Shown: positions 1,450 through 50,650 of the stretch, piece after piece
How positions within the stretch are numbered: the stretch's first letter is position 1
How the letters are laid out: each line of letters opens with the position of its first letter
NCBI GenBank assembly: GCA_951406725.2
Contig: OX597816.1
Coordinates: 23,622,001-23,686,000 of the forward strand
Reading direction: 5' to 3'
Source of the DNA: Octopus vulgaris
Lineage: Eukaryota
DNA: 64,000 nt
The notes under the pieces: generated by a model
What the model saw: only the letters and a program-made list of their open reading frames with translations
The model's database searches: none
What the model was told of the DNA's origin: nothing
Made by a program: the position numbers and the translations under genes

Positions 1450-1576
1450 CCATATGTGGAACGTTGGCGATTTTTTCCTCCGTCTCCTGTTTCTGACGAA
1501 GAGTTATGCTCGAAATGTAAAACCACCATTCTTTCCTTCCCTGAGCGTCTGCTAATACTTTGCATGTACCACGTCT
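1450..1576 (+). mobile_element. H1 short non-coding repeat carrying a minimal hammerhead motif
   Basis: Homologous to copies at 15590, 33490, 36105 and 50415 (CGTTGGCGATTTT...GTTTCTGACGAAGAG...CCTGAGCGTC...CCACGTC). Confidence 0.8.
1489..1523 (+). ncRNA. Minimal type I hammerhead ribozyme-like motif
   Basis: GUUU-CUGACGA-A-GAGU(UAU)GCUC-GAAA-UG-UA|AAAC. Stem I GUUU/AAAC, 4-bp stem II, GUA cleavage triplet. Confidence 0.65.
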
Positions 1577-1632
1577 TACCATACAATCACAACTTACCAT
1601 ACAATCACAACTTACCATACAATCACAACTTC
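1576..1632 (+). repeat. 18-bp tandem repeat x3 (TTACCATACAATCACAAC)
   Basis: Seen directly; it produces the repeated LPYNHN peptide in the ORF track. Confidence 0.9.
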
Positions 1633-1749
1633 TTAACTAATAGTTAAACTTAAGCTCTGATAACTACTATCCTAACAAAAAGTTTATAATTCATTTGGAA
1701 ACGTCCCAACCACCTGCCTGCCATTTTAAAAGATCCACATGTGACATGA

Positions 1750-2100
1750 AAGGCTTCCCCCGTGCTCGAAAGACTATGGATCTTTACCTGAAGAATTTTG
1801 TGTCAGCTGCTGACGGCGGTGAAGTTTCTGATATGGTTGCACCGGCCTTCATGGGAGTAGCAGTCATGAACGCAGTGACTGCATTTGAACAAGCTTTCTA
1901 GGGCGTCTTTTAGTTTTCCTTTCTTCGAGCGCGCTTTTCTTCGGTGGCAAATCTCAGTTTCTCTTCTCTTCACTCCATTCCGTTACATAATATTTGTTTC
2001 CAGCATAGGCGATCATTTGTGACCTCCTCCCATCTCAAGAACGTCCAGATTTACTCACTTCACATCTCTCTTGCAGATATCCCTGAAACTTTATTATACC
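1750..2100 (-). mobile_element. RTE-clade LINE 3' fragment (ORF C-terminus, pseudogenised)
   Basis: Minus strand reads FRDICKRDVK*VNLD..WEEVTNDRLCWKQILCNGME*REEKLRFATEEKRARRK, then FKCSHCVHDCYSHEGRCNHIR, a terminal C2H2 typical of BovB-like RTE. Tail CCATAGTCTTTCGAG. Confidence 0.75.
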
Positions 2101-2104
2101 TTAG

Positions 2105-2500
2105 CAAATGTTTCATCAATCCGCCTGCTATTTTCAAACATTTTCATAACTACATTAGTAAGCGAAGTTTAGATACACCGGCAGCCGGATCATCAGCTGA
2201 ATATTACAACAATGCATTGCATAGAGGTAGCTTGAATAAAGGAACTCATCGTGTATCGAAACAGATCAATGCAACCATTCAGCACGCAAAGAAAAAGTTC
2301 ACACAGAGAAACCCATCACATAGTTTAAATACCAGTTCGAACAACACAAGATTATTCCTGCATTTAGGAAATAACATTTCTACCCAACCATAACTTCTTC
2401 AAAATCTACTAGAAAGAATTTAAAGAGAAGTTACAGTTGTTCTCATAAATCTGCAGCCTCCACCGTTAAAAAAACTCTCAGAAAAACATAACTGGTTGGT
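2105..2500 (+). pseudogene. Penelope-like element RT-thumb relic (Naiad-like)
   Basis: PPAIFKHFHNYISKR..AEYYNNALHRG..NPSHSLNTSSNNTRLFLHL / PNHNFFKI / KNLKRSYSC parallels the PLE consensus HPP.I.K....I..R..A..Y..AL..SG..NPPFS.N..TN....FL.L..HFP..H...KIFN.N..K.SYSC, with frameshifts. Confidence 0.55.
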
Positions 2501-2564
2501 AACTAATTTCCACCAAAATTGGGCGAAAATTTTTAAACGATAAGAGAAACAACAGCAACACTAC

Positions 2565-2725
2565 AGTAGTAGTAGTAGTAGTAGTAGTAGTAGTAGTAGT
2601 AGTAGTAGTAGTAGTAGTAGCAGCAGCAGCAGCAGTAGCAGTAGTAGTAGTAGTAGTATTAGTAGTAGTAGCAGCAGCAGCAGCAGTAGTAGTAGTAGTA
2701 GTAGTAGTAGTAGCAGTAGTAGTAG
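2565..2725. repeat. (TAG)n/(CAG)n microsatellite
   Basis: Seen directly. Confidence 0.95.
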
Positions 2726-2752
2726 AATACTGCTGTTAATAGTAATATATAT

Positions 2753-47127: not shown

Positions 47128-47419
47128 TATTTTTCCAACCCTCAAACAGGACTCCTTGCTTATTTAATACATCTTTTATCATTAGGTTACGGCCAATTCC
47201 TTGAAGAATTTTTAGTCAATTCATTCGTTTCCAGTACTTAATTTTTTAAGCTTTGTACTTTTCTATTGGTCCTTTTCGCAGGGTCGCTAAGTTACGATAT
47301 CATAAACACACACTTGACACACACACACGCACGCACACACACACACACACACACACACACACACACACACACACACACACACACACACACACACACACAC
47401 ATATATATATATATATTAA

Positions 47420-47665
47420 ATGCGCCCTTTTAAAGCCTAGCCAGGCTCATGTGCCCGTCCCGATTTCTATGGTGTATGTGCTCCCCAGCTGGACAGAACG
47501 CCAGTCCATGGCAGCGTTACTCATTTTTGCCAGCTGAGTGGACTGGAGCAACGTGAAATGAAGTGTTTTGCTCAAGAACACAATGCGTCACCCGGTCCAG
47601 GAATCGAAACCACAATCTTACGATTATGGTGCTGACACCCTAACCACTAAGCCACGCGCCTCCAC
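47420..47665 (-). mobile_element. SINE family 3
   Basis: Homology to 43807-44052. Confidence 0.9.
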
Positions 47666-48189
47666 ACACACAAAAACACACACACACACACACATATAAT
47701 ATATATATACATATATATATATATATATATATGTTTACACACACACACACAAATACATTTACCTGGAGCATAGAAATACTGAATACTAAGAGAATACATA
47801 ATTTCTGAAGTTGACAGCTGCTTCAGGAAGGTTGGAGTTACGCAATAATTGTAATATCCATAATTTGCAAATGGAATATGCAAAATATTTTGAGTATGCA
47901 ACCAGTAAACAGTTACACGAGGATATAATAGTAAGTCTGCCTTCCCACATCAAAAGAAACTTGACAAAAGCAGTTGATATAGTAGTGCCAGGGATTTAAA
48001 GGTTGAAGAGAAAGAGGGTGAAGAATGAGAACAAACGGTAGGGTGAGAGAGAGAGAGAGGGAGAGAGAGAAGAAAAATGCAAGGCAGGGAGATGGGGAGG
48101 GTTTCTTTGGCCTATGAAGAATGAATAGATGTACAATAGATGAATCAGAGAGAGAGAGAGAGTGGAGGGGAAGATAAAATTAAGATCAG

Positions 48190-49520
48190 GCGAAAGAGAG
48201 CGCCACTACTGGTCAAGGGAGGAATTTCAACCGTGTTTCGTGGTTTGTTACCACAACAGCTCCTTTATAGGATCCAGTTAGCTCAAGATATTATCAGGAT
48301 GAACCACGTCCGGTTTCGGCCCCTAATCCTCTACCGTTTTGACGTGGCGGGGCCCCCGCTTTCGGAGGTGTCTTCAGCTTTGGTGTTGGGTGCATGTCTT
48401 CTTTCTTCTTTCTTCTGTTCCCTGGCCTCTTCGGTGTAGCGTCAACGAGTGTCAGCCGGCGACTGACTGTCTTGTCAAATTTCCCTTTAAATACCTGCTG
48501 CTCACTAAGCAGACAATAACTCAGTTAGGGATGATAGCTGACCATTCAGAGAGACAGGAAGAGATAAGCAATGAACGAAAGGAATGAGAGTGGGGGTAGC
48601 AGGAGAAGAACATATGTTAAGATAGGAAGAATCATACTAGGAGATGGAGAAAGAAAAAGGTTTTAGCATGACTAAGTAATAAGGCTTGACTACAATTTTT
48701 AGAAATCATAAAGACTTTATGCAAAGGGCGAAAGTGGAATAATATTCGTGTTTACACGAGAAGATTACGTCAGGGAACTTACTGAATAATGAGGCATTAT
48801 TATGGCGAAGGATAGTGAGCGATTTTTCTGAAAATCGGCTTACAAACACGGTGCTTAATGTTGTACGGAGAAGCCCCACAGAATACGGACCGGGATTAGG
48901 TGTAAGGAATATTCTGGGACCTGAGGTATTGTGTGTAGTGTATGTTGCCAGGGAAGTAGAGAGTTTGGCGGCTCCATTTCTGAAGGAATTTAGGCGAGTG
49001 CACTAGTAGCGCTTAATATCAACAACGCCGCCAGTGTAGATTCTAGCCGAGTAGGAAGAAGAGGTTATTACCAGGCATTTATATACATTATGGCGTTATC
49101 AAAAATCACCGAACAGACATAGTTGGGAGAACCAACAATTACAGGTTTTCCCACTAGCTTAGGATGAATCCATATTCCTATATGATTCCTATGAACCTTA
49201 ATCCTCGAGGTAGGACCGGAGGTGTTATCGTTACCAGTATAGGGCAGGGAGAAGGTGTCAATGCTGTCACATGTGCTAGGGTTACTAATACGAGAGGCGA
49301 TGGCACCACGGTTGATGTTATTGAAGTGGATAAGATACCCGAAGCTCACAGTATTAGTATCTGGCGGTTTATGGTGGGGTCCAAGCAGATAGTTCTTAGG
49401 GCTCACAGTAAAGCGGCTAAGTTTGTGCCAATTAGAAGAGGCAATTATAGAACCCATAATTACTACCCCATATTTAATAAATCTCCGATTAATCTATCGT
49501 ATTATATAACACCAAACTAG
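48190..49520 (-). mobile_element. Penelope-like retroelement 3' fragment (Naiad-like linker, GIY-YIG endonuclease pseudogene, terminal repeat)
   Basis: MGSIIASSN..; TCNCWFSQLCLFGDF**RHNVYKCLVITSSSYSARIYTGGVVDIKRY*CTRLNSFRN..STSLATY; ASPYNIKHRVCK; SEKSLTILRHNNASLFSKFPDVIFSCKH. This matches CNC..CP..G.C..VY....YIG..SFR..T.L..Y..PY..C.LC..EK..I..L.K....CRH. Confidence 0.8.
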
Positions 49521-49784
49521 AGATCTATCTGTATGTATGTATATATATATATATATATATATATATATATATATATATATATATATACTAATCAATATAG
49601 GGTAGCAAAAAATTCAATAGAAATTTTTTCGCCACCAGCGGTCTAGTGAGAAAGAGAAAATAGTCAGAGACTATATATATAATTTCATATTTATATATAT
49701 AGTCTATCTCTCTCTCTCTCTCTATATATATATATATATATATATATATATATATATATAGATATAGATATATGTACGTATGTA

Positions 49785-49990
49785 GTTAGAATTTACAGAA
49801 AACAAAAGACGAAGACAGGTAAGGGAACCACAAGCAGGTGTATTAGTTTGACACTCGGGAAGAACGGAAAAGTTCTTGACGTTTCGAGCCTGCACTCTTC
49901 AACGGGAAGAATAGAGAGGGAGAAAATGGAGAGAGAACGAAAAATAAGAGAAGAGAGAAAAATGTGTAGGGATTAACTCTTCAACACGAT
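49785..49990 (-). mobile_element. H2 repeat with variant hammerhead-like motif (49874-49910)
   Basis: UCUU-C-CCGUUGA-A-GAGU(GCAG)GCUC-GAAA-CG-UC|AAGA; TA-rich tracts on both sides. Confidence 0.65.
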
Positions 49991-50414
49991 ATATATATAT
50001 ATATATTATTTATTTATTTATTTATTTTCATATTTTGTTATTTTATAATAATTACTGGTATCCTTAAATATTATTATATTTTATATCTTATACGTAATGC
50101 TTAATATGATATATGTATGTATATTATTATAATTATCAGTTTAGTAAATAAATAAATAAGCTAACATAATATAATGTCTAAAAGTTGATGAACCACCTAT
50201 TGATCCCCTCCATTTTCTTGTTGCTATATAAATTAATGGTAAAATATCTCTTTACCTTCACTCATTTAGTAAACTAAGTATGTAATTGCAATGCAATAAA
50301 AACACTTGTGTATTAATAATTGGGTATTGTACCAGTAGTATATTGAATAGATATAACCCCTTAGTGGGTTGGATTCACAACCTCTAACTTTCTTGGAGCT
50401 ATATATATATATAA

Positions 50415-50650
50415 AGTTAACCCAAACAAGAAAACACAGAAAAAAAAGAGAAAAAAAGAGAGAAAGAAAGAGAAAAAAACACAGCAACGCAGGACGTGGA
50501 ACAATTAAAGTATTATTGACGCTCAGGAAAGAAGGGAAGGAGGGTTTAACGTTTCGAGCGGAGCTCTTCGTCGGAAACAAGGAGAAGGAAAGATCCCAAG
50601 GAGGGAAGACAGAGGAGAAAATATTTGAGCTGGTGGTGCTCAAGAGATCA
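50415..50650 (-). mobile_element. H1 repeat with hammerhead motif (50544-50578)
   Basis: GUUU-CCGACGA-A-GAGC(UCC)GCUC-GAAA-CG-UU|AAAC; stems I and II are perfect, with U4 changed to C. Confidence 0.8.

Follow-up and report, generated by a model that had tools for sequence, protein, structure and literature searches.

In a window of 64,000 nucleotides of the Octopus vulgaris genome (GenBank assembly GCA_951406725.2, contig OX597816.1, positions 23,622,001 to 23,686,000 of the forward strand) lie five dispersed repeats of about 200 bases, here called H1, each carrying a 35-nt motif with the form of a hammerhead ribozyme (HHR). An initial annotation had regarded H1 as a separate non-coding mobile family, linked to Penelope-like elements (PLEs) and processed by its ribozyme. 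Sequence comparison across the genome (2.8 Gb, 227 contigs) upholds the link to PLEs and contradicts the separate status: it identifies H1 as the solo pseudo-long terminal repeat (pLTR) of an autonomous PLE and not as a stand-alone non-coding family, because the same motif-bearing repeat flanks, on both sides, an open reading frame (ORF) encoding a reverse transcriptase (RT) together with an endonuclease (EN) of GIY-YIG type in full-length units. The lack of an ORF therefore holds for the 200-bp pieces, but not for the sequence as it occurs elsewhere. We consider it likely that these solo pLTRs come from an autonomous element, probably of the Neptune clade, whose own RT would have copied only a short, uncleaved 5' leader into nicked (TA)n tracts.

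The 30 best relatives of copy 2, the second of the five repeats, share a common 3' end that passes into TA; their 5' ends are ragged, and some of them extend upstream. A walk upstream passes through about 1.3 kb of CA-rich sequence to a stretch resembling the terminal part of a GIY-YIG domain, beyond which lies sequence coding for RT and endonuclease, and a protein search returned many unbroken frames among 123 scored candidates. The stop-free frames, of 816-1009 aa, have the motif-bearing repeat on either side in a unit of about 6.2 kb; in the genomic stretches that we designate by L-numbers, of which the ORF-bearing ones were examined at 10 kb, this arrangement is present in L121-125, L127, L128, L131-133 and L138. 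Units stand in tandem in L125-126 and L128-129, and three follow one another at C10. A single ORF with RT and C-terminal GIY-YIG endonuclease, direct pLTRs with tandem or partial-tandem copies, and a fixed 3' end combined with 5' truncation are the features of endonuclease-bearing (EN+) PLEs, and all were found. The ORF has 587 homologues at E<=0.001, with about 43-57% identity among the 120 listed, most of which carry PF00078/PF26215; PF01541 is also present among the homologues. Judged by eye, the RT and EN blocks most resemble, in Figs S1-S2 of Craig 2021 (supplementary alignments of PMC8557442), the Neptune rows, and the RT-EN linker contains C-x4-C-xx-C before the GIY-YIG core, with two Cys inside the core and then two His. 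The CX2-5CxxC linker with CCHH in the EN is as in Neptune, the linker being found also in Nematis and Naiad, and the element thus probably belongs to the Neptune clade. Since six frames of the youngest subfamily are 99.7-99.9% identical to that of L121, this subfamily has, to judge by its sequences, been active recently.

The five copies of the window, all located and all with the motif as the initial annotation had described, and the motif within each, are as follows.

1438-1575, plus strand: copy 1, solo pLTR of the older CUGA subfamily H1b, with 84% identity to a long H1b-type pLTR in L111
1489-1523, plus strand: motif of copy 1, stem II containing a G-U pair and stem III showing CpG decay
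15592-15771, minus strand: copy 2, solo pLTR, H1a (CUGA), with 90% identity to the pLTR downstream of the L118 RT-EN frame
15663-15697, minus strand: motif of copy 2, with a single stem II mismatch
33489-33700, minus strand: copy 3, solo pLTR, H1a (CUGA), with 92% identity to the pLTRs of the ORF-bearing L114 and L118
33587-33621, minus strand: motif of copy 3, with two changes in stem II
36103-36287, minus strand: copy 4, solo pLTR, H1b (CUGAAGA)
36176-36210, minus strand: motif of copy 4, with decay in stem II and at G12
50416-50652, minus strand: copy 5, solo pLTR of a CCGA (U4C) subfamily, with 91-95% identity to both pLTRs of L133 and L138
50544-50578, minus strand: motif of copy 5, identical to the motif of full-length elements

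Aligned with one another, the copies have a mean column identity of 66%. Their variation is largely as it had been described: the stem II loop reads UAU, UCC, UCC, UUU and UCC in copies 1 to 5, C or A stands at position 7 and U or A at the cleavage site, and copies 2, 3 and 5 end TTTG(G/A)..TAAC/TACC directly before TA. The terminus of copy 2 is GGATTAAC, followed by (TA)n, and that of copy 5 is GGGTTAAC-TTTATATA, in which the TTTATA part matches the first bases of the element body; copy 3 is flanked by TA tracts at either end, the 3' end of copy 4 is of the type of the older subfamily, and copy 1 has a deletion inside the element above the core and three 18-bp tandem repeats in place of its 3' end. 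None of the five has the exact canonical CUGA motif. The scattered decay that had been proposed applies to copies 1-4, which have private changes, but not to copy 5, whose CCGA is a variant of its lineage and which is the sister of L133 in the pLTR tree. A scan of the window against Rfam gave no hammerhead among the best 150 of 348 matches, those being microsatellite look-alikes of miRNA families, and a Pfam scan of eight window frames found only the RT of a long interspersed nuclear element (LINE) and recognised no host gene.

Genome-wide, exact 29-nt cores number 4,504 with CUGA, 8,962 with CCGA and 76 with a purine at position 4. Reversed-pattern controls of the exact cores gave no match, and the motif is therefore not due to chance; a structural descriptor likewise gave 133 matches in 1.8 Mb of examined sequence and none in the reversed control. 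A profile built from 14 natural copies, run on 40 stretches of 10 kb at round coordinates, gave 17 matches, of which three belong to a sister family, H2, leaving 14 matches or about 11 events. Scaled from this sample, H1 would amount to 77,000-98,000 copies (Poisson range 38,000-164,000), which suggests some 1e5 copies in the genome and bears out the very high copy number that had been anticipated. The youngest subfamily accounts for 616 exact motif matches.

How these copies were made can be approached through their ends. We read these in 92 copies chosen by an exact pattern downstream of the ribozyme, which has 11,657 matches genome-wide; the set comprises the first ~92 of 100 listed places on C1 (one arm) with incidental matches, and positions are counted from core base C3. 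Forty-six 5' ends fall at -86 to -73, none at -94 to -87 and four further upstream, the remainder lying at -72 to -1 (31), within the motif (5), at the cut site, +27 to +33 (3), and below it (3). The boundary is situated in unique sequence, beneath a 50-nt non-repetitive island absent from about 96% of copies; 18-mer counts genome-wide are 323 above it versus 7,687 below, and solo copies make up about 95% of the older subfamilies. The copies have a fixed 3' end adjoining TA: TA-like sequence comes next in 83 of the 92 copies against a background of 5.5%, as the proposed TA association would have it, the continuation being TATATAT in 41 and TTTATAT, which is the start of the body after the upstream pLTR, in 31. 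A class of copies with the 30-40 bp tail that EN+ PLEs optionally have was not seen among them. Nearly all copies are intact across the cut site, and 5' ends occur there in three of 92 copies versus 2.4 expected from the local background (four with one junction at +22, p=0.22), so that the genomic record lends no support to a ribozyme-processed element.

This insertion record fits the copying of an uncleaved 5' leader. In the mechanism that we favour, transcription would start at the boundary near -86 inside the upstream pLTR, the endonuclease would nick TA repeats, the RT would prime internally at the junction of pLTR and body and run for about 200 nt to the 5' end of the RNA, and TA micro-homology would trim the 5' junction; priming at the downstream pLTR would yield the rarer long copies and the full-length ones. 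The hammerhead would be the usual minimal dimer-type PLE ribozyme, dispensable for these insertions. Work on a lizard PLE in vitro, in the sections of PMC11167929 available to us, describes an RT that initiates internally on a pLTR-ORF template, uses mainly uncleaved RNA as its substrate and has AT-rich targets, as well as HHR cleavage only with the protein and no RNA ends found at the cut site; a start site within the pLTR is indicated in parts of PMC8557442 and PMC6765202.

The same boundary could be understood if the solo pLTRs were their own masters, with transcription from a promoter inside them and the PLE protein mobilising them in trans, as non-autonomous partners resembling short interspersed nuclear elements (SINEs), a reading close to that of the initial annotation. 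The predominance of solo copies with a common 5' boundary in the older subfamilies would suit it, as would the copies that end straight in TATATAT with no body bases, and non-autonomous PLE derivatives are reported (PMC8557442 and bioRxiv 10.64898/2026.07.22.740005, each in part). Several solo subfamilies, however, hold ORF-bearing copies with the same pLTR, since L114, L118, L133, L134 and L135 fall inside them in the pLTR tree, and the solo copies share the ladder of variants of the autonomous lineage, with no solo-only clade standing out in what is a weakly resolved tree; we regard independent masters as rather unlikely. Far less probable still is that the short copies were once longer insertions, cut back later by deletion or recombination in their CA/TA-rich flanks. 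The untranslated region (UTR) above the pLTR is indeed CA-rich and unstable, the youngest family is mostly long, and recombination or deletion has been suggested for solo pLTRs of rotifers (PMC3846280, as far as the accessible portion goes), but such trimming accords poorly with a sharp boundary in unique sequence below the island, and CCGA copies differ from their nearest neighbours by only about 3%.

Two other ideas on the 5' ends were rejected. Cap-derived extra G at the 5' junctions appeared in a few of the first 30 loci and was not upheld in the 92-copy set, and a splice acceptor is contradicted by the presence of AG in some subfamilies only, with no shared upstream exon. At the 5' boundary, about -78 from the core, most subfamilies (L114, L133, L134, L140, L111 and L204 were compared) have an ATG followed immediately by a stop, TGA in H1a and H1c and TAA in L111; L204, L135 and the youngest family have lost it. 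This could be a start-stop upstream ORF.

The motif itself has the minimal type I architecture that had been proposed, with the extra base after A9, the G10.1-C11.1 pair and a palindromic stem III without a loop that characterise PLE hammerheads. Helix II of H1 is of 4 bp; helix I has 4 bp in H1a and H1c, 5 bp with a compensatory change in H2, and three of four pairs in the youngest family, where a U-U mismatch interrupts the 4-bp stem. The conserved core CUGANGA...GAAA...UH is present in the CUGA copies, but not in the CCGA copies (U4C), which include the youngest family. Because the core-versus-flank test among individual copies is confounded by subfamily variants, we preferred a comparison of lineages, in which the 35-nt block has an identity of 0.83 versus 0.67 and 0.71 for the flanks and exceeds both in 34 of 36 pairs among nine lineage representatives, the pairs not being independent; the block is in this sense more conserved than its surroundings. 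Covariation, a test of which had been proposed, was seen for stem I in the related families H2 and H3, but none was found for stem II within H1. Since H2 and H3 keep the fold with changed stems and the block exceeds its flanks, the comparison argues that the motif is conserved across related families.

In the youngest family the hammerhead-shaped structure is predicted at -1.3 versus a minimum free energy (MFE) of -8.8 kcal/mol, and for the four intact H1 representatives folding predicts competing structures, the double-hammerhead fold being placed 15-24 kcal/mol above the dimer MFE, in models that leave out tertiary contacts and proteins. The H1 hammerhead is thus predicted to be weak or protein-dependent, and weaker still after fixation of U4C. 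Cutting of host transcripts by solo copies, which had been raised as a possibility, looks unlikely, since these are predicted to need a partner molecule.

These properties bear on the proposal that the hammerhead cuts at both pLTRs, and that ligation then yields a circle whose rolling reverse transcription would produce intact motifs, pLTR-ORF-pLTR units and tandems. Such a circle model is put forward in the part of PMC4209133 concerned with it; the youngest family has tandem arrays and upstream pLTRs of more than 1 kb, position 4 is limited to U or C in the amplified lineages (apart from the purine copies), and extracts of PMC9608096 and PMC3088659 report CCGA as active in a viroid. A circle, however, has no 5' end and leaves the hard -86 boundary unexplained, 5' ends show no excess at the cut site, and both the cost of the double-hammerhead fold and the stem I mismatch of the youngest family disfavour it, so that we hold this route to be improbable.

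Several observations weigh against our preferred account, the copying of an uncleaved leader by the element's own RT. The start of transcription near -86 is deduced from DNA only, and an Initiator-like TCATT(T)C occurs in some subfamilies and is missing in others. Contigs from four sequencing runs presumed to be of RNA, compared with part of L133, cover its pLTR and in some cases the beginning of the ORF, but say nothing about starts, ends, strand or expression and are given no weight here. The 92 copies are a one-arm sample whose downstream anchor misses the oldest and youngest subfamilies. In the youngest family 27 of 30 sampled copies reach beyond -101 versus four of 81 older ones, and solo production would therefore not have been constant. 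A ligated circular RNA would leave the motif equally intact, and the pLTR tree is poorly resolved, with 10 of 81 branches starred, and compatible with solo masters. Finally, the Pfam matches of the ORF (RVT_1, E~0.001; GIY-YIG, E~0.01) are both below curated cut-offs, and the Neptune placement was made by eye and from the linker rather than with a tree of reference PLEs.

The replacement of U4 by C is a property of lineages. CCGA is the majority form and, as its nearest-neighbour distance of 0.032 versus 0.073 for CUGA in size-matched sets indicates (0 of 1000 subsamples as high), the younger one. Its origin as decay after insertion was rejected in view of its majority, of the mere 76 purine cores and of the closeness of CCGA copies to each other, and CpG decay may, conversely, have turned some CCGA copies into CUGA. 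The literature searched reported no fixed U4C core in any PLE, although Lunse et al. 2017, which deals with variants of small PLE hammerheads, may list such cores. In viroid-like RNAs the change lowers in vitro activity considerably and still permits infectivity, according to the pertinent passages of PMC3088659, and cleavage is retained with a CCGA core in a viroid in those of PMC9608096. We tentatively suggest, as a possibility that we rate below even, that selection has preserved the motif in an active PLE lineage even as its catalysis was taken apart stepwise, that the motif now serves as a protein-binding or protein-switched element rather than a free ribozyme, and that some 1e5 solo pLTRs record an uncleaved-leader template in vivo. 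The steps, put forward with the same reserve, would lead from CUGA to CCGA and then, in the family active at present, to one pair fewer in stem I, while a sister family has fixed A6U. If this were so, H1 would offer a dated natural series for testing what purpose PLE hammerheads have.

Much of this biology is known, as minimal hammerheads in pLTRs and TA targeting are already published. The minimal PLE hammerhead, as described in the consulted sections of PMC4209133, agrees with H1 in the extra base between 9 and 10.1, the G10.1-C11.1 pair, the palindromic 15.2-16.2 without loop 3 and, in H1a and H1c, a helix I of 4-5 bp, as well as in the prevalence of single motifs from truncated PLEs, thousands per genome; those sections report low activity even as dimers. 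H1 differs in its short helix II (4 bp), in U4C in the majority and younger lineages, in the further stem I mismatch of the youngest family and in the A6U of its sister H2. From the Neptune-clade EN+ PLEs Neptune1_Nv and Danio Neptune it is set apart by a long CA-rich 3' UTR of about 1-3 kb and by some 1e5 pLTRs, for the most part solo, that share a 5' boundary. With Poseidon PAc of Anolis (Frangieh et al. 2024, PMC11167929, in the sections available) it would share internal RT initiation across the pLTR-ORF junction and AT-rich targets, for H1 on the testimony of the genomic record, as well as uncleaved RNA as template and an HHR dispensable for insertion, in vitro in the case of PAc. The two are of different clades, H1 being known from genomic insertions and PAc from biochemistry, and the proposed priming site of H1 lies before the ORF, with first bases that resemble the TA target. 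Animal non-LTR retrozymes are likewise short, non-coding, PLE-related and endowed with a type I hammerhead, but they form head-to-tail tandem monomers, whereas H1 pieces are dispersed singles running into a coding element. The identification of H1 as a retrozyme was rejected: a short-unit tandem occurred in 0 of 30 loci, and two loci had a second, diverged copy 600-700 bp away.

The initial annotation had conceded that its novelty would lapse if H1 were an ordinary solo terminal repeat, and in substance this is what we find, judged without comparison to Dfam or Repbase: H1 is a terminal repeat, in solo form, of a Neptune-like family that is new and abundant and has been active recently. The literature on cephalopod and octopus hammerheads, Dfam, Repbase and cephalopod repeat libraries not being covered, yielded no description of it; PMC13282606 lists 190 Penelope-like families in an octopus. 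For annotation, the 200-bp pieces belong under PLE pLTRs and not under SINEs or retrozymes. The interest now lies in the fixation of U4C in the core, the further weakening in the active subfamily and an insertion record favouring uncleaved templates. The role of the hammerhead in PLE termini is open, the cited work, as far as available, pointing to low in vitro activity and to insertion without cleavage; H1 adds intact, very young autonomous copies, a large record of insertions and a ladder of subfamilies along which CUGA gives way to CCGA, and its natural variants make the function of PLE hammerheads testable.

Among the related families, H2 has the core CUGUNGA (A6U) with a 5-bp stem I, UCUUU/AAAGA, and at L112:387-2170 it lies after an RT-EN frame about 60% identical to that of H1, from which position H2 can be taken as the pLTR of another PLE. 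Decayed pieces of H2 occur in the window at 4820-4924 (plus strand) and ~49795-49910 (minus strand). A third family, H3 (L152, L022, L218 and L215), whose stems I (5 bp) and II (6 bp) are wholly unlike those of H1, is the best-folding hammerhead family seen and has CCGA in one copy. A hammerhead-like motif that shows U3-A8 covariation, has C at position 4 and combines an AUAU palindrome with a stem I of 6 bp, found at 27200-27250 (plus strand) and in L175, probably represents a further PLE family. At 41080-41120 (minus strand) there is a CUGAAGA-GGCG..CGCC-GAAACGUC motif of another family, for which the descriptor found no adjacent stem I, and a pair of 280-bp repeats at 45593-45862 and 48221-48501 (minus strand), 86% identical, contains a CUGAAGA..GAAA look-alike without proper stems.

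Some arrangements of pLTRs elsewhere in the genome are more complex. In L111:3200-7450 an old pLTR of H1b type, which has a UTR of its own upstream and a TA tract, lies directly above a 5'-truncated ORF, the downstream pLTR being H1a-type, as a nested insertion or a template switch would produce; inverted overlapping pLTRs, an arrangement typical of PLE insertions, are found at L210:8693-9319, L131:9347-9655 and in L043. The rest of the window contains broken LINE pieces at 60362-62192 (minus strand; RVT_1, E 4e-27) and 14646-15158 (plus strand), and, at 48743-49520 (plus strand), two open frames (87 and 120 aa) that are not repetitive and have no Pfam match, possibly host exons or an unrecognised transposon. 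SINE-like repeats are very abundant, including those at 3133-3512, 10323-11154, 52525-52955 and 62279-63048, and several of them are arranged in tandem units of about 185 bp.

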